DNA of 61,312 nucleotides, counting the filler, from Rhizaria sp. SCN 62-66 (lineage: Eukaryota): the NCBI GenBank assembly GCA_001724265.1. It is 3 parts of 3 records of this genome, joined end to end, with 100 filler letters (N's around TTAATTAATTAA, not from the genome) between each part and the next. Parts side by side here need not be neighbours in the genome. Positions count along the whole stretch, not along the records: positions 29,757 to 45,672 come from MEDY01000493.1; 2 more parts are not named here. The stretch is one strand, 5' to 3'. Of the stretch, positions 1-59,200 are shown piece by piece. The notes under the pieces are model-generated. The model was not told the origin of the DNA. It made no database searches and worked only from the letters and a program-made list of their open reading frames with translations. A program made the position numbers and the translations under genes. The stretch's first letter is position 1. Each line of letters opens with the position of its first letter.

Positions 1-414
1 GCTTTCAAGCGCGAGTCGCTCAAGAGTGTTGACGTTGCCGACAAGTCTGGCATCAATGCGACTGACGCCATGCTTGCTAAGATTGCGCACTTCCAGAAGA
101 GCAACCTGAAGCCCGCCACCACGCACGACTCCTCCGCGGCGCACCTGACTCTGGCCAAGCTCCTCGTCTCTATTGACCAGTTCGACGCGTCGGCCCTCAC
201 GGCGACGGAGACCAACGATAAGTCCGTCCCCAACCTCGCGCTCGAGGACGACACCGGTGCCGTCCTCGCGGCGAACCCGCTGCTGTCGGCCATCTCCAGC
301 TTCGACAAGGCCTCGCTCGCGGCCGCCGAGACGCAGGACTACTCGGCGCCGCTCTTGGTCGCCGAGAACGATGACGACGAAACTGCTGACGCTGTTGCTG
401 GTGAGGCGTACTAA
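1..414 (+). CDS. 5'-truncated actobindin / beta-thymosin (WH2)-repeat actin-monomer-binding protein
   Basis: Frame is open from base 1. Four repeats: FKRESLKSVDVADKS, FQKSNLKPATTHDSS, FDASALTATETNDKS, NPLLSAISSFDKASLAAAETQDYSAP. These resemble the actobindin/thymosin motif (helix + LKHAETVDKSAP). Ends TAA. Confidence 0.7.
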   Translation, partial: AFKRESLKSVDVADKSGINATDAMLAKIAHFQKSNLKPATTHDSSAAHLTLAKLLVSIDQFDASALTATETNDKSVPNLALEDDTGAVLAANPLLSAISSFDKASLAAAETQDYSAPLLVAENDDDETADAVAGEAY

Positions 415-13366: not shown

Positions 13367-16300
13367 TTACTGTTGAGGCTGATCGTTGCTATCGTCTGCC
13401 ACCTTCGAGTCCTCCTCGTTGTTGTTCACGTTGTTGTCACCATTGTTGTCAGTGGTTGCATCAGCATCGGTACGCACTGATGCAGGCCGTGCGCGCTTCA
13501 CAGCTTGACTCACATCCTCCTCGTTGCTGTCACTTATCTGAACACTTGCGTTGTTGCTGTTATCGGCAGTGCTGTCATCGTCGTTCTCAGCCGCAGCGGC
13601 TTCGATCGCAGCCGCAGCCGCACTCGCTCTCGTGCCCACGCCCTCAAACCCATCATCATCGTCGTCGTCACCATCGTCGTTGTGGCCTTCAGCAGCAGCG
13701 CTGCCAGCAACAGACTCTTCGCGCGCACGCTTCAGCCCCCGGCCAGTGTGCGCCGCGTTGAAGTTGGCAGCGGCGGCGGCGGCGGCGTGGCTGGTGATGG
13801 TCGCCGTTGTCGCCGCGCTGAGGCTCGCGGCGGTGAGCCCCGAGCCCTGCCCCAGCGCCGCCAGCAGCCCCAGCCCGCCGCCGCCGGCCTCGACGCCGGT
13901 CGTCCCCAGCGGCGCCGGCGCGAAGCGGCTGCCCACGGCCAGCGCGACCGCGGCGTTGGCAGCCGCGGCGGCACGGGCGCTTGAGGCGCTCTCGGCGGCC
14001 GCGGCGCTCGACTCGCCGCCGGGGGCCGCGCTGCTGGTGCCGTCGATGCTGTCGGTGTTGATGGGGGCGAGCGCGAAGGGCAGCGGCAGCGGGAGCGACA
14101 CGTCGGCTCTGCCGCTGTCGCCGGCGCCGTTCGCAGTCGTGGCGCTGCTGTCTGCGGGGCCGGCAGCCGGCGAATGCAGGCGACTTACGTTCGCGCTCGC
14201 GTTGGTGCTGGCGGCGACGACGGCTTCGGCCACGCTCGCAGGCGCAGTGTGGGCCCCACTCGCGGCGGCGGCGGCGGCGACCGCGGTGGCGGCGGCGGCG
14301 AGGCTGGAGCTGAGCTGGCCGGCCGCTCTGGCGCTGAAGCTGGGCGTCGCGGGGGGCGAGGCCGCGCGCGAGCCCGCGTCCGCGATTGGCTGGTGCTGCT
14401 GGAGCTGGTGCTGCTGCTCGTAGTGGGTGTAGGCCGCGTTGTCGGCTATCAGGCCGGCGAGCTCGCGAGTCATGCCAGCGCCGGCCGCGGTGTCGGCCGC
14501 GTCCGAGGCGCCGGCGGAGCGCAGCTTGACCTCAAGGGCCTTCTCAGCGCTGTTGGCCGCACTGCTGCTGCTGCTGTCGACGCCGCTGGGGGTGGCGGGC
14601 ACGGCGGCAGGGATGCGCATCTTCGCGTTGTCCCCGTCGTCCATAGCCACCGAGGCAGACGTGTCGCCCGCGGCGTCGTCGGCCGCGCCGCTCGACTGGG
14701 TGCTCACAGCGCTGTCGTTGCTGAGGCTCTTGCTGTGGAGGCCGGAGCGCGCTCTGGCGTCCGCGGCCGAAAGGAATCCGCTCGCGCTCGTCGCCAGCAC
14801 CGTCGCGCCCAGCGCGGCGCCGCCGGTGCGGCCCGCGGTCGCCGGCGAGCCCGCAGTGGCAAGGTTGGTGCTGTTGGCGCTCACGCCCGCGGCGCTCATG
14901 CCCGCGGCGCTGGTGGCCGTGGTGAAGGCGGGGGGCGGACTGGCGCCCGTGACGAGCTGCGCAAGCGGGCTGGCGCCGCCGACGAAGGCCGCGACGTCAT
15001 CGCCGTACGAGCCGCAGAGCGAGGCCGCGGCGGGCGTGTACGCCGTGTTGACCCGCCGCGCGGCCGAGTCGATCGATGTCGCGCCCGAGGTCGCGGACGT
15101 GGCGACGGTCACCGTGGGGCCCTGCGGCGGGTTCGCCAGCAGCGCGCCGGACGCCGACTGCGACAACGCGGACCAAAACGGCGTGCCCGCGGCCACGATG
15201 GCCGCCATCCACGCCGACTGCGGGTTCACGGCCGCCGCGCCCGCCGCCGCCGTGGCCGCGATGGCCGAGGATGACAGCGCGACAGCGCCCGACGCGGGCG
15301 GCGCGGTCAGCGTGGCCAGCAGCGCGTAGGCGCGGATGCGGCTCGCGGCGGGCGACAGCACGTGCGCCGCCGGGTGCGCCATCTGCAGCGCCAGCGTCGA
15401 CCCGTGCGACTGCGCCGCCACGCCCACGCCCGTCCCAGGGCCCAGCAACATAGACTGCGCCTGCGCCTGCGCACCCGCGCTGCCGGGGACGTTGAGCGCG
15501 GCGGCGACGGCCTGGTGCGGGCGGAACGAGTGCAGCAGCGTCGAGAACAGGCAGCGGCTGCCGGACCCAGAGCCCGCAGAAACGCCCCCAGTGATCGCGT
15601 TCGTACCAGAGACGTTTCCACCGGCACTGACCCCGGGGCGTGAGAGGCCGGCAACTGAGAGCAGGTCGCTCGCAGCGGTGCTACCGCCGCTGCCGCCGGC
15701 GACGGCGCCGACGGGCGTCGCCGAGGCGGCGGTGGCCGTGGCGGGCGCGAGCGAGGTCAGCGCGAAGCCGGAGCCCGCCGCGCCAATCACGCCCGTGCCA
15801 ACCACGCCCGCGCCGGCCGGGACAGCGCTCGCGCCGGAGCTAGAGCCGCTGCTGGGGAGCGCGAAAGATGCGCCCGCAGTGCGCAGTGCCGCGCTGGCGT
15901 CACCGGCGGCAGTCGCGCCGCCGCTGTGGCTGCCGTGGCGGCGCGCGGCGGCGGCGGAGGCGCCCCAGCCGCCGGTGCCGGTGCCGGTGCTGGTGCAGGC
16001 GCCGAGCAGGCCGAGCGAGGCCACGGCGGCGGGGTTCACCGCGCCGGCGGCCATGACGAGCGCGGCGAGCGAAGACGCGCCGCCGTGACCGCCGGGGACC
16101 GCGGCAGCGGGCGCGGCGAGCATCGAGATGAGCGGCGCGAGCCCGCCGCCCGAGCCGCCGTGGAGGGACACGGCGGCTTGCGCCAGCGGGGGCGTGGCGG
16201 CCGCCGAGGACGAGGACGAGGAGAGCACGGTGCCGAAGAAGGCGGGTGGCGTGCGCGAGTGCGCGTAGGGGCCCGGGCCGACGCCGACGGAGAAGAGCGC

Positions 16301-19300
16301 CGCGCGCGACGGCAGACAAGACAGCGCGGACGTAAGCGTCAGCGCTAGGGACAGGTCCAGTACGTACTTGGCCGTGACCGCGGTGAGCGCGGAACTGCGG
16401 CGGCCCAGCGACAGGCGCGGCGCCGACAGACTGCGACGGCTGTTGCTGCTGTTGCTGCTACTAGCAGAGGCGGATGCGAGACGCGAGCGCTTGACGCGAG
16501 CCCCGTTCTCAGTGTCGACCTCAACGACATCCCCGGAGTCCGCACCGCTCGCGCTCGCGCTGGCCACGAGCGCGGGCGCATAGGCCGAGACGAGGCTGAG
16601 CCGCTGCGCCAGCGCCGCGGGCGTCACGGCCTCGGCCTCAGCGCCGCGCTTGGCGCGCACCGCGGCCCGCGGCGGCGCCGGGCCGAAGCCCTCGACCGTG
16701 GCGCTGGCCCGCGCCCGCGCCAGCGCGCGCGCGTGCGCACCCGCCCGCGGCCGCGAGACAGCGGCGGCAGCGCCATCGTGCGGAACACGTGGGGGCGCGC
16801 GTGGAACGGGTACAGCGCGCGGTACTCGCGCAGCTGCGCACGCTGCGCGCGACGGGCCTTGCGGGCGGCCGCGGCAGCCGCAGTCGCAGTGTGCTTGCCA
16901 GCGGCGCAAACAGCGCCGTCGGTGTCGCTGTCATCGCAGTCGGACTCGGACTCGGTGTCGTACTCGGCGTCGCTCGAGTTGTAGCACTCGCTGTCGTCGT
17001 CATTGCGCACACTCTCGGCGGCCGTGGCGGCCGCGGCGGGCGGCGGCAGCGCGCAGTCGTGGAGCGCGGTCCAGCGGCCCGCCAGCGCGTCGTCGTCCTC
17101 GGCACCCGCCGCGCCGTACGCGCCGCGGCCCAGCAGCGCCTCCAGGTCCAGCCCCAGCCCGGCAGCGGCGATCGACAGGTCGCGCGTCAGCGCGCCGCGC
17201 GCGCGGCGACGGGCCTCGGCGCGCTCCTCCGCGCTCACAACGCCCGTGGCAGCGAGAGCGGCGTCGGCGTGGGCCTCGGCGGCGGCCTCGGCGGCGGCGA
17301 GCGTCTGCAGCGCCGAGACGACGGCGGCCGTGTGCAGGGGGTTGCCCTCGACGGCCTTAAGCGCGGCCGCGGCGCCCGCGTCGGTAGCCAGCAGCACGGC
17401 GGCGGGGGACGCCAGCGGGCCCGTGATGCCGGTGCACACCGCGGCCACCACGGCAGCCGTCACGGCGGCGCGGTGCTGCGCCAGCGCGGCGGGCGTGACG
17501 AGGGACGCAGGCAACAGGGTGAAGCGGGTCGAGCCCTGGCCGATCGGCGCAATCGCAGGTACGGACACACCGGCAGAACCGCCGTTGGTAGGCGACGGCG
17601 ACTGGGACGACGACGACGGAGACGCGGCGGCCGCAGCGGCGGCGGCGGCGGCGGCGGCGTGCGCGCGGTGCGCGGCGGCGGCGCCCTTCTTCTTGGATCC
17701 CGGCAGCGGCGGCAGCGACAGCGACGCGGGTAGCACCGCGGGCGCAGCGGCCGCGCCGGCGCACGGGCTAGCGCTCGCGCTCGCGCTCGCGCTGGGGCTC
17801 ACGCTGGCGGCGGCGGTGGCGGCGGCGGTGGCGGCGGCGGTGGCGGCGGCGGTGGCGGCTGCAGCGGAGGCGGCGGCGGCGGAGGTCGCGGCGACGTAGG
17901 CCGTGGCGCTGTTAGGGCCCGTGCCCGAGGACAGCTTCTGCTTGCTCTCGATCACGCTCGTCGTGGCGGCGCGCAGCTCGGCGTCGTAGAGCGGGTCCGG
18001 CACGAAGAGCGCGCGCGCAAAGACCGCGGCGAAGGGCAGCGACGGGTGCGACAAGAGCGCCTGCGTGAACGAGGCTGACAGCGCCAGCGACACGGCCGGG
18101 CCCGGGGCCGTGCCCGCCGCCGCAGCGGCAGCGGCGGCGGCAACGCTGTTGTTGACGCGGGGCTTGGCGGTGAAGCGAGGGCGCCCGGTCGCAGTCACAG
18201 GCGCCGTCGCAGACGCCGTCGCGTTAGCGGTGGCGGCAGGCGCGGCAGAGACTGTGTCGGCCTCGGTCTCGCTATCACTGCAGCTCGCGCTGGCGTTGGC
18301 GTTGGCATTGGCATTGGCATTGGCACTCAGCTGCGCGGCGAGCCGGGCCGCGGCCGGCGTCGGGCCGGCGCGGGGACTGGCATCTGGGCTCGCGCCCGCG
18401 CTCGCGGCGGGTGAGTACGCCTGCGCGATCGAGTGCCCGTCGGCCGCGCGCCACGCGCCCGACACGGACACGCCCGTTTCAGCGGCGGCGGCGGCGAGCA
18501 CGGCGGCGGCGCCCGTGGCCGCCGCGTCGGCCACGGGCAGGGGCAGCGGGCACGGCAGCGGCAGCGCGTCGGCGACGGCGGCGACGGCCACCGCGGTGGC
18601 GGCGGCGGCGGCGCTGCTCTTGGCCTCCGCAGCCGCAGCCGCAGCCGCAGCGGCCGCGTTGGCGTTCACAGACGCCGCAGCGCCGGCGGGGGCGAGAGCG
18701 CCCTTGCCGGTGGCCACTGCGGCGGCGGCAGCAGCGGCGGCAGCGACGGCGGCCGCCGTGGCTGCCACTGCGGCCGCCGTGGCGGCGTCGGGGCCGGCGC
18801 GGCGCGTCTTGCCCTTCTTGCCGTTCTTCTTGGCGCGGCGGGCGGCGGCCTCGGCGGCAGCGGCGGCCTCGGCGGCGGCGGCCGCGTGCGCCTGCAGGTC
18901 GGCCGCGGTGGGCAGCACGGGCGGCAGCACTGCCGCCAGCGCGGCGGGGCGCAGGACAGGCCCCAGCGCCAGGTCGGCCGACGCGGCGGCCGCCAGTGCG
19001 AGCGCCAGCGCGTCAGGGGTCGCGACCAGGGTGTCGTGGTCGCCCGCGGCCATTGCAGCTACCGCGCGACAGCCGCTGCTGTTATGATTACTCGCACTCA
19101 CACTCGCACTCGCGGCAGCGCTGCTGCTGTTGGCGCTTGCGCTCGCGTTGGTGAGCGGAGAGGTGATGTCGAGCGCGTGCGAGAGCAGCGACACGCACTC
19201 GTACTCGCTCACGCCGACCATGGTGCCGTAGCCGCCGCGCGCCGCGGCCGCGGCGGCCGCCGCCGTGTCTGCCGCGGCGAGGTGCGTGGCGCCCGCGACG

Positions 19301-22300
19301 ACGACGGGCAGCGGGCGCACCGCGGCGGCGCTGGCGGCGGCGCCCGGCACGAGCACGCCGAGCGTGGTCTGCACCGTCTGCGTCACCGCGCCGGGGTTGT
19401 TGTGCACCTGCAGGTACGCGCCGTGCGCGCCGCCCGCCGCGGGCGCCGTGGGCGGGTTCGAGGGGCCCGCGTCGAGCGAGGACTGGTACGTCGCCACGTT
19501 GGCCAGCTGCGCGTCAGACGCGCTCTGGCCGGGGCAGACCAGCGCCTGCGGGCCACGGTGCTGCGCGGGACCCGCGGCAGCGGCGGCCGCCGCGGCCGCG
19601 GCGGCTGAGGCGCCCTTCTTGTGGCTCTTGGCCGGGCGCGACGACGAGGACGCAGAGGAGCCAGAGCCCGCGGCACCTTTAGCGCCACCGCTGGCGTTGC
19701 TGGCGTAGGTGGGCGTCATGGTGAGTGTGACGACGGGGATGGTGGCCGCTGTGACCGTGGGCACGTATGCGCCGCCGAGGCCCGCACCCACAGTCACCAG
19801 CGCGCCGGTCGCGGGCCCGCCACTGCCGCCGACTGCGATGCCGCACTGGGGCGGCGGCATGGCTGTGGACTGCTGCGAGCTGGACAGCACGGCGGCGGCC
19901 GCGGCCTCGACCGCGCGCAGCGACGCCGCGGCCGCCGAGGGCAGCGTGGCGGCGGCCGCGGCCGCAGCGGCGGACGCGGAGGTCACGTGTGCGAGCGCGG
20001 CGCTCAGCGCGGGCGGCACGCGCGGGGGCGCAGTCGCTCCCGCGCCAGCGCCAGTGGAGCCCCCGCCGATTGCGGCAGAGGCGGCGGAGGCGAATGTCGA
20101 CGCGCTGCTGTTGGCTGCGCCGGCGATTGCGTTGTTGCCCGCGGCAGCGTTGGCACCCGACGCTGCGGCGGCGGCAGCAGCAGTTGCGGCGGCGGCGGCG
20201 GCGGCGGCGGTGGTGGTGCCGAGCGGCGGGGGCAGGCCGGCGGCAAGCGCGGCGGCGGCGGCGGTGGCCGCGGCTGCGGCGGCTGCGGCGGCGGCGGGCG
20301 CGGGGGCGTACACAGTGTCCTCGCCGCCGGTCACGGTCACCACGAGCTTGCCGCCGGTGACGGCACGGCCGGCACCCGTGGAGTTCGCACTCGCGCTCGC
20401 GATGGAGCTAGAGCTGGAGCTGGAGGTGTTGCCGTCGGCTTCCGCAGCGTGAGCGTTGGTGTGGACGACGACTGAGGGACACAGCGTGCCTGCGGCGGCC
20501 GCGGCGGCCGTGGCGCCCTGGGCGACCGCGAGCGCCGTGGCCGAGGCCGCGCTGCCCGTGGCTGACGCGCTGTGCCCGCCGTGCCCGCCGTGGCCGTAGC
20601 CATACCCCGCCGCCGCGGCGGCCGCGGCGCTCTGGCCCGCAGAGGCCACGGTCGCCGTCGCCGCCGCGCCCAGCAGCGAGCCCGCGGCGCGGCCGGGCAC
20701 GCGCAGCGGGGGGCCGCGCACCGTCGACGGCGGGGGCGGCGCGCCGCGCGCGGGCGCCGCGGCCGCCGCGATGGCCGTGGCGGCGGCGGCAGCGGCGGCC
20801 GAGTTGGGAAGCGGCGGCATGAGCGTCACTGACGGCTGCGGAGGCGGCCCCTGCGCCGCCGAGGCCGCGGTCGGCAGCAGCGGGCCCGCGGCCAGCGCGC
20901 ACGCCGCGGCCGATGAGACGGCGGCCAGCAGCGAGAGGTCGCTCGTGGGCGCCAGCGGCGGCTCGGGCTTGACGCCGACACTGGCGCAGGCGCTGTCGGC
21001 AGCTGCGGCCAGAGAAGACTCAGTTTTAACATCGTTGCTACTGCTGCTGCTGCTGCCGCTGCTGCTGTTGCTGCTGCTGCCGCCAATGCTGTTCTCGACC
21101 TTAATTCTGTCGTCGCCGTCGTCCATGCTCTTGGCCACGACAGCCACGGCCGCAGTCTCGCCGCCGCCGTGCGCGGCCGCGGGCAGCAGGCGCTCGGCGG
21201 GCGTGGCGAGCGTCTCCCTGAGCGCGACGGCGAGGAAGCCCGCCGAGACGGCCGCGCCGGGCGCCGTAGTGGGCAGCCCACGCGACGTCAGCCCCGGCGC
21301 ACGGGACAGCGCGGCCTGCGCGGCGCCGGCAAGCGCGCTGTCGAGTGCGGCGGCCGCGGAGCTGGGCACCGAGGCCGCCAGCGCGACCGCCGCGGCCGTG
21401 GCAGCGGCGGCCGCGGCCGCGGGGTCGGCGGACAGACCAGCGACAGCGCCAGCGCCAGTGCTCGCGGCAGTGGCGGTCGCAGGGGCAGCGACGGCGGCCG
21501 CGCCGACGGGGCCGATCGCACTGCCGGGGATCGCGCCGACCGCCGTGGTTGTCGCGGCGGCGGCGTTGTCGGTCTTGACGAGCACGGCCGCGAGCGCCGC
21601 CGCAGCCGAGGTCGCAGCGGCGGCGGAGGGCACCGCGGGCGCCGCAGCGGGATCGCCCGCCGCGGCCGCTGCAGCCACCGCCGCGGCGGACGCCGCGGCG
21701 GCGGCTGTGGCGACGGCGGCCGTGCCCGTGACGGCGGGCGCGTAGGAGAGCGTGAGCAGCGGGTGCGAGGGCGGCAGCGACAGTACAGTGGCGCTGGTGA
21801 CGGAGCCTATGCCGCCGACGCTGCCCGCGCCCGCGCCCTGGCCCGCCGAGCCCTGGCCTTGGCCCTGGTTGCCGCTGCCGCCGCCGCCGGGCGCGCTGGC
21901 GCCGGCGCCCGCGCCCGAGGCGACGCCGCCCCAGGCGTCGACGCGGCGACGCACGCTCGCGGCTTTGAGCAGCACCTTGTACGACACTGTCTGCTTGGAC
22001 ATGTAGTAGTAAGAGATGCACTCCTGCGTCGTCTTGTTGGGCAGGAAGGTCGAGATCTTGGCGTAGTTCTTGGGGTATTTGACAAAGCGCTTGGCGAAGA
22101 TGGCCTTCTCCTCCTCGCTCCAGGGATTCTGTTGCGCGATCCAGCTGTCATGTGCGTCCATGTCCGCGATGTAGCCGTTGTTGTTGACGAAGACCTTCTC
22201 GCGGCGCTGGTGTGGGCACAGCATCTGCTCCGTGGGCGCCGTCTCGCTGATGATGTACCTCATGTCGATCACCTCGCCGCTGCGGTGCACGCCGAACAGC

Positions 22301-25300
22301 GGGCCCGGCTCCACCGCGCCCTCCGCGCCCGCCGCCGCGCCCGCGCCCGCGCCCGCGGAGGCCGAGGCCGAGGCGCTGAAGTGTGGACCGGCCACAGCGG
22401 GCGCGCCGGCCATGGCGGCCGCGTGCGCCGCCGCCGCGGCCGTGGCGCCGCCGCCGGCCTGCAGGACCGCCGCGGTGCCCGCCACGGTGAGCAGGTTCGC
22501 GCCCGCGGGGATCGCGGGGGGCGCGTCGCCCGGAGTCGGCTCGGTCGACTCGAGCAGGCTCGGCGCAGACGGCAGCGCTGCGGCGGCTGAGACGGCCGAC
22601 GCGGCGGCGGTCGCTGCGGCGGCTGAGGCGGCCGCGGTGCTGCCGGCCTGCGCTAGAGCCGCGGCGTTGCCGGAGGCGGAGGCCGCGCGCCGCTGCTGCC
22701 TACGCGTCGAGCCCGCGCCCGCATGAGCGCCATTCGAGGCCGCAGAGGAGGAGGATGAGGGTGCGGCGGTGGCGGCGGCGGCCTCGGCGGCGGCGGCGGC
22801 GGCGCGCTCAGCCCGCTCCGCGGAAGCCACGGCAGCGGCGTGCTCCATGTGCGCGCCCGCGTCGCCCAGCGCGCCCACGCCGCCCCAGCCGTGCAGCGAG
22901 AACACCGGGCTCGCACCGTAGTGGAGAGGCGGGGGCAGCCGGCCCGCGCCGACGCCCGCGCCGGCCTCGGGCGCGGGGGGCGCGACAGGCACCGTGGCGT
23001 TAAAGCCCAGTCCCTCGACGCGCGCGACTGCGGCCGCAGCAGCGACGGTGGCGATGGCCGAGGCGTTGGCGGCAACGGCAGCGGCTGAGTTGGCGGCAAC
23101 GGCGGCAGCCTCGGTCGCGGCCTCGGCCTCAAGCAGCTGGTGCAAGAAGGCCTCGGCGGGCGGCGCGTCTGGCGGCAGCTGCTGCGTGTCGAGCTCGTGC
23201 TGATACTGCACGAATTGAGCGTGCACCAGGTGGTGGTGCTGGTAATGCTGCTGGAACACGCCCTCGGCGGCCTCGGCGGCGTCGGCGGCCGCGATCGCGG
23301 CATCCGCGGCCGCCTGCGCCGCCGTCTCGTCGTCTAGCGCGAGCGCGCGCACGGGCCGCGGCAGCGAGCCGGAGCCCAAGCGGTGGCCCAGCAGCACCAG
23401 CTCGGCCGCGCCACGCACCGCGCCCGGCGGCCCCGCGCGCAGCGCCGCGTCGGCGAGCCTCGCGCTCGCGGCCGTCTGCGGCAGCGCCGCGCCGGGCGTC
23501 AGCGTCGGCTGCCCGGCAGCCGCGGCCAGGTCCAGCGCGGCCACCGAGAGCAGCCCGGCGGCGCGCGCGGGCGTGGGGCGCGCGAAGAGCGTCACCAGCC
23601 GGTGCGCGGCGGCAACCTTGGTGAGCTTGGCGTGCGCGGCCGTGAGGCGGTGGCAGCGCGCCAGCAGCGCGCGGCGGCGCCGGTGAAGCTCGGCGTGCAC
23701 GCGCGCGTGGCCGCTCACCGTCGCCGCGGCCGTCGCCAGCGGCAGCTGCGCGCGCGCGGCGGCCAGCGTGGCCTCGGCAGTGGCCACGGAGACGGCGTCG
23801 TCGTACCCCATGCATCCACTGATGCCCTCAGATACACCCGCACTCGCACTCGAGCTAGAGCTAGAGCTGTTCTTGTTCACGCCTGCGTTGGCGGTGGCGA
23901 TGGCGGCGTTGAGAGCGGCGGTGGCGGCGTCAACATCGGCCATCGCGGCGGCCACCGCGGTTGCGTGCACCGCGGCGGTCGCCGTCACGGCGGCGGCGGC
24001 CGGGGGCGGCGCCACGGCCACAGTCACCGTCACCGTGCCGTCACCGGCAGCCACACCGCCGCCGGCGTTCGCGGCGGCGACGCGGCGCCTGACGACGGTG
24101 GCGGGCATGCCGGGGACCGTGGGCAGCGGGAAGGCGGGCGCGAACATAGGGTGCGTGTACAGAGGCGCCAGCGGGAGGCCCGCGAAAGTGGGCTGCGTCG
24201 CCAGCGCCGCCGCGGCCGCAGCGCCGCCGGGGGTCGCCAGCAGCGTCGCATCGCTCGCACTCGCACTAGAAGCACTGTTTGCATTAGCGTTGTTGATGAT
24301 CTGCGTCGTGGTGTCGCCCTGGAAGGGCCGCGACCACTCTGCAATTACGAGGCGCGCAGAGAGGGCACTGGGCGCCATGGGTACCAGGCTCGCGGGCGGC
24401 ACAGTCAAACCGCCGTTGTGCGATGAAACAGCGCTCGCGCCGTTGCTGCTGCCGTTGGCGGAGGCGCGGAGCCACGCGGGGATGGCGGGCGCCATCTCCG
24501 CGCGCGAGGCGGCTACACGGAGCGCGTTGCCGGCCTGGACCACGTCCACCAGCGACTGCCCCTTGCGCACAGAGACAACCGCGCTGTCGTTGTTCGCATT
24601 GCTAACGGTGACTGAGTGGGCCGAGTAGTGCGGGTGGCGCTCCGCCCAGGCAGCGTCCTGCACGTGCGTGAAGGCGCTTACACCGTGTAAGGGGGCCGCG
24701 CGCAGCGCCTGCTGACGGGATAGCGCGGCCTGGCCAGCCGCGGACGCCGATGAAAGCGCCGGCATCGCGCTGCTGTCGCTGATACTGAGATTCACATCAG
24801 ACTCGTACGCGGACTTCGCATTTGTCTCAGCCTTTACAAGGTTCTCAGCGCTAGAGGCAGCACCGACGACCGCGGCCGGCAGCGCCTGTTCCCAGGCACG
24901 AGCAACCGTCTCCCACTGCTGCACCAGCGCGGACAACGCACGCAGCGCAGACTTTTTAGGAACCGCAACCGAGGCGCTGTTCCACTGCCCCGTGGCGCTG
25001 CGGTCGAGCCGCGCCAGCGCCAGTGACCGCGAGCGCGACTGACCGTGGGCGTGGCCGTGGGTTTGACTGAGGGAGGAGAGGAGCGCGGCGGCGGCGGCGT
25101 CGCGGGCGGCGCGGCAGCTTACCCAGGCCTCGGGCAGGCCATTCACCGAACTTGCACTCGTGGTCGCATACACGCTCGCGCTCGCGCTTGCACTCGAGTT
25201 GTTCACATGAGAGCTCGTGGCGCAGTCCCAGTCGCCCTCGGGAGTCATCGTCAACTGCTGTTGCTGTTGCTGTGGCTGTTGCTGCTGAGAACGGCAGTAT

Positions 25301-26334
25301 TGCACCACGGCCCCGCTCTCACTGCCAGACTGACCGTGACCGTGGTCTTGAGTGACCGTGAGCGCGGCGGTACTCGGGTCGAACAAGATGCCCAGCGCGG
25401 CCGCGTCGGCCGGGTCCGCCGAGAGCAGGTACCGGCTCACCGCCTCCGCGTCCACCACGCCGTTCGCACCTGTGTTAGTGTTGCCGTTCGCATCTGTCGA
25501 GTTTGCCGTGGCCGCGACGACGGCGGCGACAAGCACTGCGGGCGCGGGCACGGCCACGACGGCGCCCGCCTGCATGCGCACCGCGGCGCCGCGCCAGGCG
25601 CCCACGCGCGCGTGGACGGCGCGCAGCTCGCCCTGCAGCCGCGCCAGGTGCAGCCGCGCAACCGTGAGCTCCACCGTCAGCCGCTGCCGCGCCAGGTGCT
25701 CCGCAGCCACGTCGGGCACGGGCAGGTTGCGCTTCGGTGGCGGGCGCGCGGCCGGGGCCGGCGCGTCGCCGCCTTTGCCCCCACCCGCGCCGCCGCCGCC
25801 GCCGGCCGCGGAGTTGGCGCCGCCCGCACTGGCGCTGGCGCGGCGGAAGGAGCCGCCGGGCGTGGCGGCCGCGGTGGGCGCGGCGCGCGCGTTGCTATTG
25901 CTGCCGACGCCGCCGACGCCGCCGCCCGTGGCTGAGCGGGAGGCCGCCACGGGCGAGGCCGGGGGGAAGCTGCCGCTAGCAGCGTAGCCCGAGCCGGAGC
26001 CGGAGCCAGAGGCCGCGGCCGAGGGCGGCTGCATCGGCAGCGGGGCCTTGGCGAGGTTGGCGGCCGTGGCGCGCGCCGTGGCGGCCTGCGTGGCCTGGTA
26101 CGGCGCGACCATGAGCGCACTGTAGAGCGAGACTTCGAGTCCGGCCGTGACGCGCGCGGCGTCCAGGCACTGTGTCAGCAGGCGGCGCGCGAGGGCACAG
26201 TCGCGAGCGTAGAGCGTGTTGAGCGTGGGGAGCGACAGGGGCCGGCCAGAGGAGGCCGCGGCGACGGCGGCGGCGACGGCGGCGGCGGACACGGCGGGGG
26301 CCAGCGACGCCACATCGCTCAGCGCGGTCTCGCC

Positions 26335-26366
<32 letters not shown>

Positions 26367-27345
26367 TGCTGTAGCTCGTGCTGACGGAGGTGTTATTGTG
26401 CTGCTGTTGGAGAGACGGCAGCAGCGGGAGGGAGAGCGCGTGCGTCAGGGTGGCCAAGTCTGAGGGGGCACTGAGACTGGCATTGGCTGCGGACACGCTC
26501 TTGGTCTTGTTCGAACTCACAACAGCACTAGAGCTGGAGCTGGAGGCCGTGTGCTCGTCAGAGTCAGCGTCGGACTCGGCGTCCGAGTCCGAGTCCGACG
26601 GGACGAGGTCGTCGATGGTCATGGCCACGTTGTCAACGTTGACGCCCTCGCCGGCCTCGCCCGCGCCGGCCCACGCGCGCTCGCGGCGGGCCACGACGGC
26701 GCGCAGCACCGAGAGCACCGCCGCCGCGTGCGCCAGAGTCGTGCCGCGGAGCACTGCGGTGGCCTGCGGCGACTGCGCCTGCGAGCCTTCGGGAGCGAGC
26801 GCAAGAGCGATCGGGGTTGCGGCAGTCGGGGAGACACTCATGGAGCGACTGTGCGCAGCAGAGCTCGAACTCGCGCCCGAGCTCGAGCTTGAATGAGAGT
26901 TGGCTGTCGCAGTGGCAGCCAGACAGAATTCTAGGCGCGATGCCAGTGTGCGGGAGCTGAAGGCAAGGGAGCGCCAGCGGGACAGGCGCGCGCGCTTAGC
27001 AGCGTGGCGCGCGTCCGTCTGCGCGGCGGCCGCAGCGGTGGCGTGGGCGACTGAGAGCGACGAGACGGCGGCGTCGGTGGCGGAGAGAGCAGCCAAGAGC
27101 TCAGCATCACTGAGAGAGGTCAAATCATTGGCGGAAGACGTCAGGAGAGACGCGGGCAGCAACGGCGCATGAAGGCCGAGCTGCACGCGGACATCGGCAG
27201 ACAGCGGGACTGGTGCGGGTGCTGTGGCAGGCGCAGTCACCGTCGCGGAGGCTGTGGACGACAAGGCAGGAGAAGAAGGCGCGACAGTGGGGGCATCCGG
27301 AGGGGACGCGGCTGCCAGGGTCGCGGACGCAGGCGTTGCGCTCAT
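13367..27345 (-). CDS. giant Ala-rich SANT/Myb-domain protein (N-CoR/SMRT/Snt1-like), ~4660 aa, one apparent frameshift near 16760
   Basis: ATG at 27345. SANT domain NPWSEEEKAIFAKRFVKYPKNYAKISTFLPNKTTQECISYYYMSK at ~22130-21990, preceded by a N-CoR-like 'F.NNNG.I.D' segment. Coding signature continues in the overlapping frame 13367..16909. Ends TAA. Confidence 0.75.
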
Positions 27346-28121
27346 GCGGGCAGTAAAATGCGCAAAAATAAATTTATAAGACGGGGTGCACACGCTGTTG
27401 CTGTTGGCACAATTAAAGGGCGCAAGGCGCCGGCTAAATGACAGTGGTGTGGAACGAAAGAGCGAGAGTTGGGTGAGGAAGGACGGTAAGATAGCTAGCG
27501 GGGCATGGTGAATACGAATAGAGATTTAGGCGCGCACGCGATTATAGTTACAACAGAGCTCTATGATACTCAAACAACGTCTCCATTGGGGCCAATTTCG
27601 GTCGCACAGCTACAGGCGGAGTGGACGAAGCAAGATGAGCGAGAGAGCGCGCCCTCGGTGCGCGCAGATTGCAGTATAAGACCTTGCCGTATTCAGGCAG
27701 AGCCTCACTTGAAACATCGGACACAATACGCGCATTGAAATGCAAAGGTAATGTCCTCATCCAATAGAGTCAACGCAGCTTGAGATATCCCTTGTCAAAG
27801 TGCAGTCAAATTCGACACTACAGTCTACCTTTTTCGGTCCACCACAAAGAGGACGAAGAAAACAAGAATTGCTTCGAGCAAAGACCGACTCAAAATCACG
27901 CTCAAAAATCAGCTGGAGCAGGCCGTTGTGGATGGAGTGTTAGGGATGACGACTGGTTTCTCGTAGTATCATTATCTCACAATCCCGCGGGTCCGAGTGC
28001 ATACTTTAACAATGATGGGAGTTGAAAGCACCCATCATCTTCTGTATTATTTTTACATTTCTTCAAATGACTTATCTATCATGTTGCTCATGTTCTTGAC
28101 TTTGACCACAAAACCAGACCA

Positions 28122-29656: not shown

Positions 29657-29756
29657 NNNNNNNNNNNNNNNNNNNNNNNNNNNNNNNNNNNNNNNNNNNN
29701 TTAATTAATTAANNNNNNNNNNNNNNNNNNNNNNNNNNNNNNNNNNNNNNNNNNNN
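29657..29756. other. artificial contig linker
   Basis: 44 N + TTAATTAATTAA (stops in all six frames) + 44 N = exactly 100 nt; repeated identically at 45673. Confidence 0.97.
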
Positions 29757-41143: not shown

Positions 41144-42488
41144 TTAGTAGTGCGGCACGCTGTCGCTGTCGCCGAGCAGAGGCGTGTGCATTGAGCTGGG
41201 CTTCTTGTTGTCCTTACTCTCCTTCTTGGCGTTCGCGCTACTGGTGCCACTGTTCGACACATCGGCGCTGTGGCTATCCTTGTTCTTGCTCTTGCCGCTC
41301 TTGCCCTTGTTTGCGGCCGCCGCAGCCGCTGCCGCGGCGTCCTGGCGGGCGACATTGGCCTCAGCCTCGGCCTTAAGCGCGGCCTCGGCCTCCTTGATCG
41401 CCTTACGCTTCATACGCTTCTCCTCAGCCGTCTCGCCGTCGTTGCCGCGCATCTTGGCAACCTCGGCCAGCAGCGCCTTCTCCTCCTTCTCCTTGGCCTG
41501 CACGGAGCGCTCCGCCGCCTCCTTCTCGTCGAGCGCGTAGCGCATGCGGTAGATGCGCGTGTGCAGCGCCTTGTCAATCAGGTTCACGACCTCGTACTTG
41601 TGCACCCAGCCGTCTGACACCACGTCCACGCAGTCCTGGTTCCACGGCACGTTGATCTTCTCCAGCTCCCTGCGCATGTGGTCGATCTGGTCCGCAGTGC
41701 CAATGATGCCGTTGGTCGTGGTCGCGATGAACTTAAACGCCATCTTGAACTCTTCCTTGACGAGCTCGAGCGCGCGGTCCGCGTTGGCCTGGCGCTGCTC
41801 GTCCGCGAAGGCGTCCTAGCCATCGCCGAGCTTGACCTGTTCCTGGTTGAGCTCGAACAGGCGGTCCTGCATGTCCTCGAGCGGGGCGATGATCTCGTCG
41901 AGTTTGTTGGCTTCGTGGGAAATCAAACCGACCTCCTTGCCCAGCGTGCTGAGACGCTCGCCGTAGACGTCAGTGGCCTCGGAAAGGGACTTGTTGATAA
42001 GGCAGTACTGCTCGCGCTCGAGGATACCCTTGCCTGCCACGCCTTCAAGCTTGGTCGCGGCGTCGGCGAGAGCCATGATCTTACTATAGCCCCAGACAAA
42101 CAGAGTAGAGCCGACGCCGACGAAGCACAGCGCAGCGCCGACGGCCGGGGTCGGGATACCAAGGCCCTTAAGGGCAAGGTAACCGACGGCCGCGCAACCC
42201 AGGAGAGAAGTGATGCAAATCATCTACATGACAAAGCAGCAGAGTGGCGTGAAAAGAGAGGGGATGCGAGCAAGTGTGAGCAGGGTGGCTGAAGGAAAGG
42301 CAGGGCGGGAGGGGGCAAGACAGACTGGGGAATGGATAATAGAGACGTACCTCGGTAACGTGGCAATCGTGGCCAAAGTACTCGCCGACATACCACTTCA
42401 TACACTTGTTCTAGGCGACGGCGTAGCAGCCCTCCTCTTCCTCTTGGTGGTCGAGCCCTTCCTCGAGGTCGCGGAAGCGCGACTCCAT
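41144..42488 (-). CDS. membrane-anchored coiled-coil protein with a degenerate EF-hand pair; 2 exons; contains two in-frame TAG codons
   Basis: Exons 42488-42351 and 42223-41144; intron GTACGT..TGTAG, phase 0. In-frame TAG at 42413-42411 and 41818-41816. Hydrophobic hairpin, then heptad repeats, then KEEFKMAFKFIATTTNGII...VDVVSDGWVHKYEVVNLI (calmodulin-like). Ends TAA. Confidence 0.75.
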
Positions 42489-45672: not shown

Positions 45673-45772
45673 NNNNNNNNNNNNNNNNNNNNNNNNNNNN
45701 NNNNNNNNNNNNNNNNTTAATTAATTAANNNNNNNNNNNNNNNNNNNNNNNNNNNNNNNNNNNNNNNNNNNN
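45673..45772. other. artificial contig linker
   Basis: 44 N + TTAATTAATTAA + 44 N, identical to 29657-29756. Confidence 0.97.
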
Positions 45773-46469: not shown

Positions 46470-49400
46470 TCACGCGTGGTAGTTCTTGACCGCGACGGCC
46501 TGGCCCGTGCGCGCCGACTCGATCGCCGCGGCCGTAACCGCGACCGAGGTGACACTGTCGGCCAGCGAGACGGGCGGCGCCGCGCCGCCGCGCACGGCCG
46601 CCACCACGGCCTGGTAGTAGTCGGTCCAGCGACCCGGCAGCGTAGGGACCGGCTCGGCGACGCCGGCGCGCGTGCGCAGCGTGCCGTACTCGGCCTTGGG
46701 CTCGACGGCGACTCCCAGTGCACGCCCAGCCACGAGCACGTGCTCCTGCGTGTCCATGCCGTGCTTGGCAAAGGTCGCGACGTCGCCGACCACCAGCATC
46801 TTGGGCTTGGGCACCGCGACAAACGCGCCCACGTCGACCACGGCCACGGACCCGTCAGAGAACGTCACCGTGACTTGCGCGTGCGTGTCGGTGTCGGGTG
46901 CCGCTGCGTCCTCGCGGAGGATCCGCGCATACACCGAAGCGGGCACAGGCGCCGCGGCCTCGGGCTCGTCGGGCTCAACCCCGGGCTCCGCGCGCCGCGC
47001 GTGGCGGAACACCGTGAGCGCGTGGTCCAGGCAATGGGCGCCCAGGTCCCAGAGGCGGCCGCAGCCGGCCTCGTTGGCGCCCCGCTTCCACGCCTCGGGC
47101 GACTTGGACAGCCCTGCGTTCCAGGCGAACTCGGCCCAGCGCACGCGGCCGAGCGCGCGCGTCTTGAGCAGACTGCGCAGCGTCGCAGCGTCGCCGTCGA
47201 AGCGCCGGTTCTGGAACACCGTGAGTACGCGGCCCGCGCGCGCGGCCTCGCCCGCCAGCGCCTCGGCCTCAGCTACGGTGGGCACGAACGGCTTGTCCAG
47301 CACGACGTGCTTGCCGGCGCGCAGCGCTGCCTGCGCGTACGCGGCGTGCGTATCGGGCGGGGACGCGATGACAACCAGCTCGACCGACGGGTCCGCCAGC
47401 GCGGCCTGGAGCGACGGGTACACAGTGGCTTCGCGCGCGGCGTCGAACGTCTCGGCCGTGGAGAAGTCCGCCAGCGACACGGGCCCCGCGCGTGCGCCGT
47501 CGCCGTCGCCGCTGCCCTCGGCCGCCGCAGAGTAGCTCGCGGTAGACAGGGAGAGCGAGAGCGAGGGCGAAAGCGAGAGTGAGACGCCCGCGCTCGCGGC
47601 CAGCGCGTCGGTCGCCGACACCGACAGCGCGGCGGGGCGCGTCAGCAGACGCATGTCCCACGCCACGCCGTGCGCGGTGACAAGTCCGTCAAACTGGTCC
47701 TGCTCGCGGGCAGACAGCGCGCACGGGGCGGCGGCGCGGCACGGCGCCTGCGTGTCCGCGCGGCCGAGCGCGTCGGCCTCGGTCACCGTGGCAAAGTGGT
47801 GCGCGTCGATCGGCACGCCCGCCTCGCCGAAGTGGTTATGCAGCTCGACGACGTGCTGCCTCACCGCGGCGGCGCGCTCTGCGTCGGCAGTGGCGTCCTC
47901 GCCACGGGGACGCACGACGGCGCCCTTGAGCACGATGCCCGCGGCCGAGGCCAGCGCGGGGGGGTGCAGGTCGCGGCCCGCGAGTCCCCAGCCGACGACA
48001 ACGGCGCGCACAGGCGCCACGCGCGCGGCGACGGGGCGGCCGTCACGCGCGGTCGCCGTCGTCGCCTTGGCCTGCAGCACGGGCTTGACGGCGAGCAGTC
48101 CGCGCGTGCGCATGTAGTAGTAGCCCTTGAGGCGCAGCGCCGCGTAGCCCAGGTAGTCGAACGCGACGCCCGTGGACAGCGACATAACGACGGACCACGA
48201 GCCCCAAAAGAGGTGCGCGGCCAGGACAAATCCCATGACGCGGCGCCGCAACACTTCGACGCGCGCCTCAAGCACGGGGTCCTCGCTCTGCGCGGCCTCA
48301 CTCAGCGATGCGGCGTCGGCGTCGAGCGTCGTGTTGACGTCGCCGGACCGCGCCGCAGACAGCGCGCCTGCCGACAGCGACTGCGGCGGCGGCGGCGGGG
48401 CAAGCATCGAGGGAGTGGTCGGCGACAGCAACGCGCCGCCATCGGGCCGCGTGGCCGCGCCTGCCGAGTAGAGGTCGGCCGCGCGGAGGTACGTGCGGAT
48501 GAAGTTACGCTGGTGGTCCTCGTCGGGGAACTGGCGCCAGTCACAGTCGAAGCCGGAGCACTCGCAGAAGTGGTTCGCGATGTCGAAGGCGCGGAAGTTG
48601 ATCGCGCCGTACTCGAAGTCGATCAACGTGACCGTGGGCACGCCGTGCTCGTCGTAGGTGTGCAAGATGTTGCCCGACAGCAGGTCGTTGTGGCAGAATA
48701 CGAGGGGCTCGTCAAGCGCCAGCAGCAGCGCGCGCAGCTCGACGAGCTCGCGGTGCACGCGCGGCAGGTCGAGCGAGCGGTATAGAGCCAGCCGGTCCGC
48801 GTCGCCCGCGGCCTCGAAGGCGGCCTCGGCCTTGATGGCGAGGGAGAGCCAGCTCTCGATCGTCGTCCACAGGGAGCCGTTCGCAGCCACGGGCTTCGGC
48901 GGCTCCGGGGACGGGCGCGGGGGCACGGACGAGCCTGTCGAAGCAGTAGACTGGGAAGCAGCAGCAGACGGAGCAGCAGTCGGGGCAGCGGCAGTGGCCG
49001 CGGCGGCAGTGGCAGAGGCGGTGGCGGCGGCAGCGACGGGCTCCTCGGGGGAGGGCATGCGGAAGCGGAGCGAGTGGAGCGCGGCGACGGAGACGGCGAC
49101 GGCGGAGGAGATCTGGCGGTCGAGCATCTTGGCTGGTGTGAGGCTCTCGGCGCCGTCGAGGAAGCCCTCAAGACGGCCGTTGGTGAAGGAGCCGAAGATC
49201 GAAGGGCCGACGCGGTTGCGCGAGATGAACTTGGCAACCTGGAGCTCCGAAACGCGGTTGATCACGGCCGACGAGTGGCGGCCAAAGAGGCGCACAATGA
49301 CCGGCGGGTACGGCGCCATGCGGCACACGAAGAGGCGGTTCGTGATGCCGCCCTTGAGCACGAGGTGCTCGAAGTCAACGGGCGCCTCGGCGGGAGCGGG

Positions 49401-49892
49401 ACCGGACGGGTGGTACCTGCGAGAGACATACGGGGACAGGGCAAGGTGGGGCAAAGATAGAAAGGCTGGGAGCGACTTGAGAGGGCGTCGGAGCGAAACA
49501 GAGGCGGAGACGTGGGGGATGGGTAGGACAGGAGGGGTTTGAACGACTTAAGGTTCTAGAGACGGACCTGTAGACAAGCTCGGAAATGACGTGATAAAGG
49601 TCAGCGCGGATGTTATCAAATGACTTGTCCATGTCGACCACAAACTTGATACGGCGGTCCTCTGGTGCGAGCTCAGACTGTGGAAGGAAGCAGTATTAAA
49701 ATAAGGGCAGTGCGACGTTGCGGGTTGAGTTGGGACGAGAGCAGTCAGAGAAATTAGTACTAGCGAGACATAAGCAGCAGTGGACGCCACAAAAAGAACT
49801 CAGCAATAAACATCAGCATGCGTCGCTCGTGGTATCAGACGTACCTGGTTGGGGTGGTCGTGAGAAGGCGGTCCAGTAGCAAATGCAGACAT
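46470..49892 (-). CDS. fusion protein: ethanolamine/choline kinase + Gfo/Idh/MocA oxidoreductase (YdgJ/IolW-like), 3 exons
   Basis: Exons 49892-49845, 49677-49568, 49416-46470; introns GTACGT..CACAG and GTCCGT..CGCAG. Kinase motifs: LKGGITNRLF, VIVRLFG, FTNGRLEGFL, VFCHNDLLSGNIL, LIDFEYG, FDIANHFCE, FDYLGYA. Oxidoreductase motifs: VVGWGLAG, GKHVVLDKPF, VFQNRRFDGD, GRLWDLGAH. Ends TGA. Confidence 0.88.
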
Positions 49893-56200: not shown

Positions 56201-59200
56201 ATGTCGTACCCGTCCCACATGGGCATCCAGATGGGCCACATTGGCAACAACGTGGAGGACGACTTCATCCGCATCGCCGGGCTCGACTACACGGCCGAGG
56301 AAGTTGATCCTCTGCGCGCGCTCTGGCTCGACGTCAATGACCCCGACGCGGCGCCCGCCGAGCGCGACGCCGCACGCGAGGCCTTTTAGAAGGAGCGTGC
56401 GCGCCTTAAGGCCGTCGTCGCGGACCGCGCGTCGATGCAGCGCCGCCATTGGGGCAACGTTGCTTGGCTCGACATCATGCTGCAGCGCTGGCTCACGCCC
56501 GTGATCATGCTCGCCTACCGCCACACCGTCACCGAGCACGACATCCCCGCGCTGCCACCCGCCGAGAGCGCGGCGGGCGTGGCGAACGACTTCAACCGCG
56601 AGTGGCAGCGCGAAATCGAGCGCGCCGTGCGTCTTCGCCAGCCGCCCTCGGCGTTCCGTGCCGTCGTCAAGAGTAACCTCCGGCCGTTCGCGACCATCGC
56701 GGTGTACGAGGCGATCTTCTACGCGACGACCTTCGCGTCGCCGTACCTAGTCGACGCGCTGACCAGCTTCTTCGAGCGCGCGGGCCGCGGCGAGCCCACC
56801 GATGCGAGCGAGGGCTTGCTCTACGCAATGGGGCTCGCGCTCGTCGCGCAAGCCGCGGCCGCGATGGTCGTGTACAAGTTCTTCTACTGCACGACCTTTG
56901 GCCAGCGCATGCGCTCGATGGTGATGATGACCGTGTTTGACAAGTCTCTCGCCATCGCGCCCTCGGCCGCGCTCGAGACGACCACGGGCGAAGTGATGAA
57001 TCTCATGGCCAACGACGCGCAGAAGCTGCCCGGTGCAGCTCTCTTTGCGCACTTGCCGTGGATCTCCCCCACGGTTATCCTCATCTGCATGGTGCTTCTG
57101 TGGGCCAAGATTGGGCCCTCTGCGCTGGTGGCGATGGCGCTCATGGCGATGCTGCTGCCGATGCAACTGCTCGTCGCGCGCTGGGTCGGCAAGAACCGCC
57201 GCGCGACGCTCGTGTTCACCGACGCGCGCGTCAAGCAAGTCAACGAGATGCTGCAGGGCGTGCGCGTGATCAAGCTCTACGCCTGGGAGGGCGCGGTGCG
57301 CCGCACGCTGGCCGCGATCCGCGAGAAGGAGCTCCGCTTCATCCGCAACGGGCTGCTCTACCGCATGCTTAACCTCGTGATGCTGTTCGTGTGGCCCGCG
57401 CTGGTGACGTACCTCACCACGGTGGCGTATGCGCACATCGGCGACGGCGAGCTCCAGAGCAACACCATCTTCTTCATTCTGTCGTTCCTCAACGTCGCAC
57501 GCTTCCCCATCACTCTGCTGCCGTACGTCATGCAGTCGCTCGTCGAGTCCCTCGTCGCCACCAAGCGCGTCGCCACATACCTCACCCGCGCAGAGTTGCC
57601 CCAGCGCCCGCTGCTCCCCGCACCCGCGCACGCAATCACTCCGGCACCCCAGTCAGCAGCCGCCGCCGCCGCCGCTGCGTCCCCCGCTGCGACTCCCAGT
57701 AAGCGTGGCGGCGCAGCGGCACACTCTGCCCCCGCTGCTGGTGTGATGAGCGCGCCGTCGCAGGCGACGCTGAGCAAGTCCCTGTCGCTGGTGCCGCCGT
57801 ACGCCGCGCGCTTCGCCGTCGCCATGCGGCACGCCGCCTTCACATGGTCGCGAGAGCCGCTCTCTAGCGACGCCCCGCCCGTGCTCGCCGACGTGTCCCT
57901 TGCCCTGCTGCCCGGCTCGCTGACCGCGGTTGTGGGTCCCGTCGGCGCGGGCAAGTCGTCGCTGATCTCGGCCATCCTGGGCGAGATGCACCTCTACGCC
58001 TCGGGCGACTGGGCGCGCGCGGCGGGCGCTGTCCCTTCGGGACTCACCGAGCAGGAACGCGCGCTCTGGCAGCTGGCCGCGCGCGGCGAGGCGCGCGCCC
58101 CCGACGCCGCGCCTGCCGTGCCCACGCAGCGCCAGCGCCCTGAGGCCGGCGCGCTCGCCCCCATCAAGTCGTCGGGCCATGGCGCTGGCGCAGGCTCAGC
58201 GGCTGAGGGCGAGGAGCCGTTCATGCTCTCGCCCGACACGGGACTGCCGCTGCCGGCTTCGTTCCTGGAGCTGCCCGCGCCCGCGTACTCGACGGCGATG
58301 CCGCCGCCGCCACCGCTGGCCGCGGGGCCCGACGGCGTGCTGCTGGCCGAGCGCCCCGCCGCGGGCGACCTCGACTGCTCGGACCCGCGCGCAGCGCTGC
58401 AGCTTGTCTGTCTGCGCGGCCGCGTCGGCTACCTCGCGCAGGACCCATGGATTCTGCACGCGACCGTGCGCGACAACATCACGCTCGGCCTGCCGTACTC
58501 GCGCGCGCGCTTCGACGCCGTCGTCGCCGCGGCGGCGCTGGCGCCCGACTTTGCGATCCTGCAGCACGGCGCTGACACGGTCATCGGCGAGCAGGGCGTG
58601 AACCTTTCGGGTGGCCAGAAGGCGCGCGTCGCCATGGCCCGCCTGCTGTACCGCGCGGACCTGCTCGACGTTGTGCTGCTCGACGACCCCTTCTCCGCCG
58701 TTGACATGGGCGTCGGCAAGCACATGTGGGAGCAGTGCGTTCTGGGCGTGCTGCGCAACAAGACGCGCCTCATCTGCCTCAACTCGCACCTCCACTTCCT
58801 GCGCCAGGTCGACGCTATCGCTGTGCTTGACGCCGCTGCCGGCCGCGGCGCCTCTGCACCCGCCTCGCCCGCCCACCACAGCCAGGACCACAGCCCTGGT
58901 CACAGTCATGGGAACGTGCACGTGCACGACATCGACCTCGACCTCAGCGTCGACTCGAGCGCCGCCCGCAGCGGCTCCAGCCTCGGTGCTATCGGCGCCG
59001 GCGCTGGTGTTGATGTTGCGGCGGGGCTCGTCTCGGACATGACGCGCCGGCCCGTGACGACGATCGTCGCGCAGGGCACGTACGCAGAGCTCGTGGCGGC
59101 TGACGTCGAGTTCTCCCGGTTCGAGCACCACAACGAGGGCCACGACCCCGAGGAGCCGCCCGCGATGGGCGCCACCGACGCCGACGGTGAGCCCATCGCC

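Follow-up and report, generated by a model that had tools for sequence, protein, structure and literature searches.

Structure of the gene and its in-frame TAG codons

The locus at 41144–42488 (minus strand) raises the question of whether a TAG codon that interrupts its reading frame is translated and, if so, as which amino acid. The window referred to below is the whole stretch of DNA analysed, 61,312 nt in length including filler. As an earlier note had described, the TAG at 41816–41818 (minus strand) lies in frame 24 codons before the ATG at 41743, with the frame running unbroken into the ORF that ends in TAA at 41144–41146, the true stop of the gene (minus strand). The gene was found to extend further upstream into an exon 1 (42351–42488, minus strand; 46 codons from the ATG at 42488), which, together with a second in-frame TAG inside it (42411–42413, minus strand), had been overlooked in that note. 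In the translation, exon 1 ends at a GTACGT donor in phase 0, followed by a GT..AG intron of 127 nt (42224–42350, minus strand) and by exon 2 (41144–42223, minus strand; 359 codons plus TAA); in the resulting gene of 405 codons, the ATGs at 42223 and 41743 are both internal. Exactly the 127 intron bases are skipped by a single X5 contig with 26 letters on its short side, X5 being the sole run with spliced evidence and possibly containing DNA as well. BLASTP with exon 1 gave matches in the homologues P0128 and P0130, and the paralogue L002 reads unspliced over the exon 1/exon 2 junction.

Two hydrophobic, probably transmembrane segments (42086–42223, minus strand) were judged by eye from the translation, and a degenerate EF-hand-like region (approximately 41534–41770, minus strand) starts before the ATG at 41743. 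The EF-hand-like domain proposed earlier was borne out for the family, with a C-terminal Pfam EF-hand in five of the 17 homologues scanned (P0133, P0134, P0135, P0139 and P0141), whereas the Pfam scan of the 405-codon protein itself gave no match. From its sequence, the gene product is best read as a membrane protein with two transmembrane segments, a coiled coil and a degenerate EF-hand.

That the TAG at 41816–41818 is not an assembly error is evident from contigs of three other studies, none of them flagged as a possible source, X4 (41368–42468), X5 (41495–42068) and X7 (41784–41934), which agree with 0 differences. A JGI contig (L198), possibly not independent, carries this TAG, too, and the one at 42411–42413 is identical in X4 (record 10) and X5 (record 24). 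The labels of the runs that contain the stretch describe them as metagenomes from bioreactors, wastewater and fuel cells. Over positions 41399–42476, X4 contains the same organism and at least one relative that is 81–88% alike and would be useful to date a code change; the metagenome scan for relatives returned one identical contig and no relative besides. Removal of the TAG by splicing was rejected, in agreement with the earlier note: none of the 10 GT dinucleotides within 230 nt upstream of the TAG fits the donor consensus, the 30 nt preceding it contain 3 T only and no pyrimidine tract, homologues align gap-free, and an X5 contig spans the codon unskipped. The contig of the poly(A) run X13 stops at 41847, short of the TAG.

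The search of 1.84 billion database representatives returned 21 matches, comprising 19 other proteins and the two halves of this gene, which sit in the database as separate proteins; standard gene calling splits genes with an in-frame TAG in this genome. Seventeen of the 19 were aligned together with the own-genome paralogue (n = 18), which is located at G000:C272, is 32% identical over residues 2–347 and aligns without a stop across the TAG at 41816–41818. Sixteen of the 18 homologues align across this TAG, upholding the claim that the two ORFs are a single gene whose TAG is translated through; the in-frame TAG itself is confirmed. Reading the column in homologues and paralogue, as had been proposed, gave Glu in 8, Gln in 7 and Ser in 1 of the 18, with 2 gaps. 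Gln is the residue of P0124, the database homologue nearest to the protein, and this counts against Glu; the next six matches covering the site have Glu, and so has the paralogue. In the X4 relative, among the rows listed of the difference table, GAG was found at 41816–41818 in three contigs and CAG at 42411–42413 in one, the latter counting against Glu; the 42411–42413 column holds Cys in two distant homologues. The earlier assignment to Gln had been drawn from a heptad repeat. Gln does occur at −7 and +7, but in the wider register Leu, Ile and charged residues prevail, and since the family column favours neither residue (eight Glu, seven Gln), the heptad argument is unable to tell the two apart.

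A third in-frame TAG of the window (56387–56389, plus strand) belongs to a different gene, 62 codons past its likely ATG, and has an in-frame coding score on both sides; because the 131-aa piece around it gave no Pfam match, its column was uninformative.

Elsewhere in the window, a 994-aa ORF (46470–49454, minus strand) fuses a choline/ethanolamine kinase domain to a GFO/IDH/MocA oxidoreductase, and a short ORF (70–414, plus strand) has a thymosin beta-4 (WH2-like) Pfam match above the cut-off. A 3,589-aa ORF with one Myb-like domain (13367–27393, minus strand) overlaps the start of a 1,180-aa ORF in another frame, and the two may form a single giant gene interrupted by an intron or a frameshift around 16624–16930. 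Paired 44-base N runs flanking 12 bases at 29657–29756 and 45673–45772 are contig joins, the window comprising more than one G000 contig.

UAG usage across the genome

Stop codons were tallied in the window and ~976 kb of further loci (together ~1 Mb of the 34.9-Mb assembly) with a coding model trained on long ORFs rather than a full annotation; because the sample mixes random stretches with loci picked by family or TAG content, the rates are rough. Where the best-frame coding signal continued on either side of a stop, that stop was TAG in 23 cases, including the antisense-looking site L072, and TAA or TGA in none. Gene-end-like stops comprised 40 TAA, 23 TGA and 2 TAG, the two TAGs being explained by the exon-1 TAG of the present gene and by a TAG within an intron donor. 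In the near-random 381-kb subset, internal stops were 8 TAG, 0 TAA and 0 TGA at threshold 4, and terminal stops were 23 TAA, 14 TGA and 0 TAG at threshold 8. Since internal stops are all TAG and genes end in TAA or TGA, UAG is a rare sense codon; a sense reading had also been inferred in the earlier note. Its use was roughly estimated at 0.4% of Glu codons, based on 30 curated sites versus 7,792 GAG and GAA codons in long ORFs. In-frame TAG was found in conserved genes, namely those for eRF1, FAP21, kinases, an E2 enzyme, SUV3 and MetRS.

With an unchanged code, each internal TAG would have to be an error of sequencing or assembly (from G>T damage, for instance), a newly arisen nonsense allele or a case of gene-specific programmed readthrough. 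The rarity of TAG and its absence from the long sense-frame dynein heavy chain exons examined would suit such an explanation, as would the many TAGs inside HMM matches that proved intronic (23 of 27 in one set, judged by eye and removed). It is countered by the uniformity of the 23 internal stops (p = 2 × 10−4 under random point errors and p = 3 × 10−5 under G>T/C>A damage), the identical base in three other studies, the interruption of the sole eRF1 gene found, the lack of TAG at gene ends, the presence of a cognate tRNA(CUA) and the 30 internal sites, among which no shared downstream motif was found. An unchanged code is, hence, largely refuted and scarcely credible, and that the readthrough reflects a genome-wide code change can be taken as virtually certain.

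Regarding the candidates screened, two TAGs flagged in dynein heavy chains turned out to be intron acceptors, and those in the DEAD, ABC, kinesin, myosin, SNF2 and mitochondrial carrier families were all intronic among the ones cut out and read. Matches with mixed stop types were mostly left out of the family searches. Of the 1,832 TAG candidates, 102 from the top-ranked 150 were scanned with Pfam; six gave a match, and many were antisense-looking.

Analysis of the +4 position revealed G after 5 of the 30 internal TAGs, compared to 39% after GAG (p = 0.007) and to 35 of the 63 true stops, with L072 left out of this count. The deficit hints at residual competition by eRF1, as would be expected from a partial recoding in which UAG is mostly read as Glu, while eRF1 ends some chains and near-cognate tRNAs add Gln, Lys or Tyr. 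Partial recoding would hold UAG rare; it overlaps with the full recoding preferred here and differs from it in efficiency. The rough share of 0.4% of Glu codons, the single tRNA(CUA) gene found and a T32S exchange in eRF1, which is milder than the T32G of Iotanema, point in the same direction. However, the deficit is not significant versus the CAG context (p = 0.10) and could result from the avoidance of cryptic TAG/G splice acceptors; moreover, a TAG lies inside eRF1 itself, and none of the 63 real gene ends has TAG. On balance, we regard partial recoding as rather unlikely.

Amino acid assignment of UAG

In the eRF1 gene (L003, G000:C63), the in-frame TAG is located at locus position 1596 (minus strand) and falls within the stop-reading domain, at position 107 of the protein. 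Among 117 homologues, this column contains Glu 106 times, Asp 10 times, Val once and Gln never, with the single Val being that of the closest relative. The TAG column of FAP21/EFHB holds Glu in 5/5 of the alignments listed, from green alga to mammal, and at a TAG in a kinase hinge, Glu was favoured over Gln by 2.4 bits. Asp was found at the TAG column of SUV3, in yeast Ubc6 and in the two closest paralogues of kinase L165. Pfam log-odds summed over 10 sites were 0 bits for Glu, −3.6 for Gln, −4.2 for Lys, −7.4 for Asp, −11.2 for Ser, −20.3 for Tyr, −23.8 for Leu and −26.6 for Trp; the 3.6-bit margin of Glu over Gln comes mostly from one site, and Gln lies 0.1 bit above Glu at 5 of the 10. The sum leaves out the USP site L204, because its Glu, Gln, Trp and Asp versions gave no match at the cut-off, and Pfam scores at the SUV3 and EFHB sites did not discriminate between residues.

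Reading UAG as Gln, the assignment favoured earlier and the one known from Iotanema, would require a Gln-charged suppressor or decoding by tRNA-Gln(CUG) via first-position wobble. It draws on the CAG of the X4 relative at 42411–42413 (among the rows listed), the 7 of 18 homologues, including the closest, with Gln at 41816–41818, the TAG in the ubiquitin-derived domain L070, where the own ubiquitin has CAG, and three TAGs within Gln-rich tracts (two in L154 and one in L231), the last two observations counting against Glu. These signals all appear to lie at loose positions, whereas the strongly conserved ones call for an acid, with Gln in 0 of the 117 eRF1 homologues and 0 of the five FAP21 alignments listed. 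Since CAG-to-TAG is a transition, Gln neighbours at loose sites would be expected under either code, and such sites would presumably tolerate the change as Gln to Glu. Counting against Glu are also Ser at the TAG column in the closest solved relative of kinase L202 and in UBE2J2, and Cys in USP5.

Pattern searches and ARAGORN identified one tRNA with a CUA anticodon (G000:C84:76008–76080), scoring 58 bits with Rfam RF00005 (cut-off 29) and followed by a T run. Among the 25 other tRNA species recovered, it is nearest to tRNA-Glu(CUC), with a score of 34 and 47/73 positions identical (64%); the next-best score was 21, and the two tRNA-Gln reached 10 and 1.5 only. FastTree placed it as sister to the genome's own tRNA-Glu(CUC) with a support of 0.93. 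The T-stems of the two are identical and the acceptor pairs U1-A72, C2-G71 and C3-G70 are common to both, whereas the tRNA-Gln genes have G1-C72 and U73 in place of the U1-A72 and G73 of tRNA(CUA). By this resemblance, tRNA(CUA) most likely derives from tRNA-Glu. A second tRNA(CUA) was not found by ARAGORN on 60 of the 81 and 17 of the 27 matches of two pattern searches; of the CUA pattern matches outside ARAGORN, 16 were Gly, Ile or Leu tRNAs already known, occurring in strings, and 15 had C37. The 11 pattern matches obtained for tRNA(UUA), with intronless spacing only, yielded a single tRNA, a tRNA-Lys, and no tRNA(UUA). tRNA-Glu(UUC) was not located with two tRNA-Glu patterns, and a T-loop pattern was uninformative, too; the lack of this tRNA for comparison counts against Glu, as does the identity of only 64% with tRNA-Glu(CUC).

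The Glu body of the sole CUA tRNA found, the Glu at strongly conserved columns and the GAG of the relative at 41816–41818 all speak against Gln, and the earlier assignment was abandoned as very unlikely; that UAG stands for Glu rather than Gln is highly probable from these comparisons. The preferred reading, to which we assign a probability of roughly 0.85, is a nuclear code in which UAG would be a rare Glu codon and UAA and UGA would be the stops; the TAG at 41816–41818 would, most likely, be an ordinary Glu codon inside one gene.

Release factor, proposed mechanism and known codes

eRF1 is essential, and the TAG interrupts the only eRF1 found in the genome; the other eRF1-like match is one that we take to be Pelota. 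The protein carries T32S and G57S at positions with Thr and Gly, respectively, in 117/117 homologues, T58K at a position with Thr in 116/117, and M34V at a nearly invariant position. The motifs GTS and TASNIKS are, thereby, changed, while NIKS, Glu55, Ser70 and YxCxxxF are retained. The closest relative (P0006, JGI; 84% identical) shares M34V and T58K and keeps Thr32 and Gly57, and its source may stand before or beside the code change. In the available text of the respective papers, Thr32 is tied to UAG recognition (PMC5304391, PMC9161772, PMC3384315), and it is described as bonding the G of UAG and as altered in Iotanema (PMC5304391); the available part of PMC12440015 contains nothing on T32 or T58. 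By analogy (PMC5304391, PMC3384315), T32S, G57S and T58K would weaken the reading of UAG.

We propose that a duplicated tRNA-Glu would have switched its anticodon from CUC to CUA and would still be charged by GluRS; it would decode UAG only, because CUA is without wobble onto UAA. T32S, G57S and T58K would loosen the hold of eRF1 on the third-position G and make UAG an inefficient stop. UAG may have been lost from gene ends first and then sparsely regained from GAG and CAG, with its rarity reflecting the GC-rich genome and the one such tRNA gene found. Both parts of this mechanism, a tRNA-Glu-derived suppressor and three eRF1 substitutions, are present and amenable to readthrough assays in yeast or human systems, and the substitutions could possibly guide the design of eRF1 variants for amber suppression.

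The UAG in the eRF1 gene makes autoregulation possible, although the closest relative has Val at this position. The lone tRNA-Glu(CUA) would compete with a partly blinded eRF1, and, reminiscent of the RF2 frameshift of bacteria, more eRF1 would cause more eRF1 truncation at its own UAG. Taken jointly, an undescribed UAG = Glu code that is still young and leaky in its GC-rich rhizarian host, including such a feedback switch between eRF1 and UAG, is improbable.

UAA and UAG nearly always share the same meaning, and the few exceptions are test cases for code change. According to the available text of PMC11687900, UAG alone is recoded to Leu in the rhizarian exLh and TARA ciliates, to Gln in Iotanema, Hartmannula, Trochilia and Protocruzia, to Ser in Scotinosphaera, and to Leu or Gln in phyllopharyngean ciliates; Gln for Iotanema spirale and Leu for exLh are also given in PMC5304391. 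As in these codes, UAG is a sense codon and UAA is kept as a stop in the present genome, with in-frame UAG in conserved genes and a CUA tRNA without a UUA counterpart among the matches obtained. As far as the available descriptions go, a CUA suppressor tRNA is also present in two TARA ciliate MAGs and an altered Thr32 of eRF1 in Iotanema. In the same descriptions, the amino acid is Leu, Gln or Ser, in contrast to Glu here; UAG use is "widespread" (PMC11687900), while it is very rare in this GC-rich genome; and eRF1 of exLh has Ala at position 69, whereas Leu69 is kept here and T32S is accompanied by G57S and T58K. The features of an Iotanema-type code were not observed, the strongly conserved TAG columns being Glu/Asp and tRNA(CUA) grouping with Glu.

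UAG = Glu is described, in the available text of the respective papers, for Oligohymenophorea sp. PL0344, where UAA = Lys (PMC10553269), and as part of UAR = Glu for Blastocrithidia (PMC12153298) and peritrich ciliates (PMC11687900). On that basis, PL0344 shares with the present genome a tRNA-Sup(CUA) closest to tRNA-Glu, but it has UAA as a sense codon, UGA as the sole stop and 10 CUA tRNAs, whereas UAA is the commonest stop here and one CUA tRNA was found. Blastocrithidia reads UAG by a tRNA-Glu(CUA), as would be the case here. In both Blastocrithidia and peritrichs, UAA is recoded along with UAG, in contrast to the 0 internal versus 40 terminal-like TAA and the lack of a tRNA(UUA) among the matches obtained here, and the code of Blastocrithidia has been linked to AT pressure, unlike the situation in this GC-rich genome.

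In the literature searched, consisting mostly of open-access texts without supplements, so that an earlier description is possible, the combination of UAG = Glu with termination at UAA and UGA was not encountered; the main text of two recent rhizarian papers contains no nuclear code change. The code works like the known UAG-only codes, with an assignment that was not found reported. If true, it would constitute a new codon table (UAG = Glu; UAA and UGA stops), as far as that literature goes, and would probably mean that UAG was recoded a second time within Rhizaria, independently of exLh and to another amino acid. The change would have arisen in a genome rich in GC, in contrast to the AT-driven model for Blastocrithidia.

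The host is probably a rhizarian, although this is weakly shown by the sequence comparisons. The GC-rich genome contains long GT..AG introns, dyneins, FAP21, myosins and mitochondrial carriers, and the best named match of one window protein is from the chlorarachniophyte Amorphochlora, followed by stramenopiles. Two ubiquitin genes begin with Met-Ser-Met-Gln, with an extra Ser before the usual start, and no monomer junction was found in the assembled sequence; these starts fit the ubiquitin insertions of Rhizaria as given in the available text of PMC12930898 and PMC13746701. With reference to the loci L214, L215, L216 and L217 (G000:C168, C182, C445 and C594, respectively), the ubiquitin of this genome is unusually divergent and has the Met-Ser-Met-Gln start. 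The ubiquitin-derived domain of L070 is close to it and lies within a longer ORF with TAG. A 1,296-aa open frame at G000:C323:27188–30508 (plus strand) contains six mitochondrial-carrier repeats and represents a doubled carrier.
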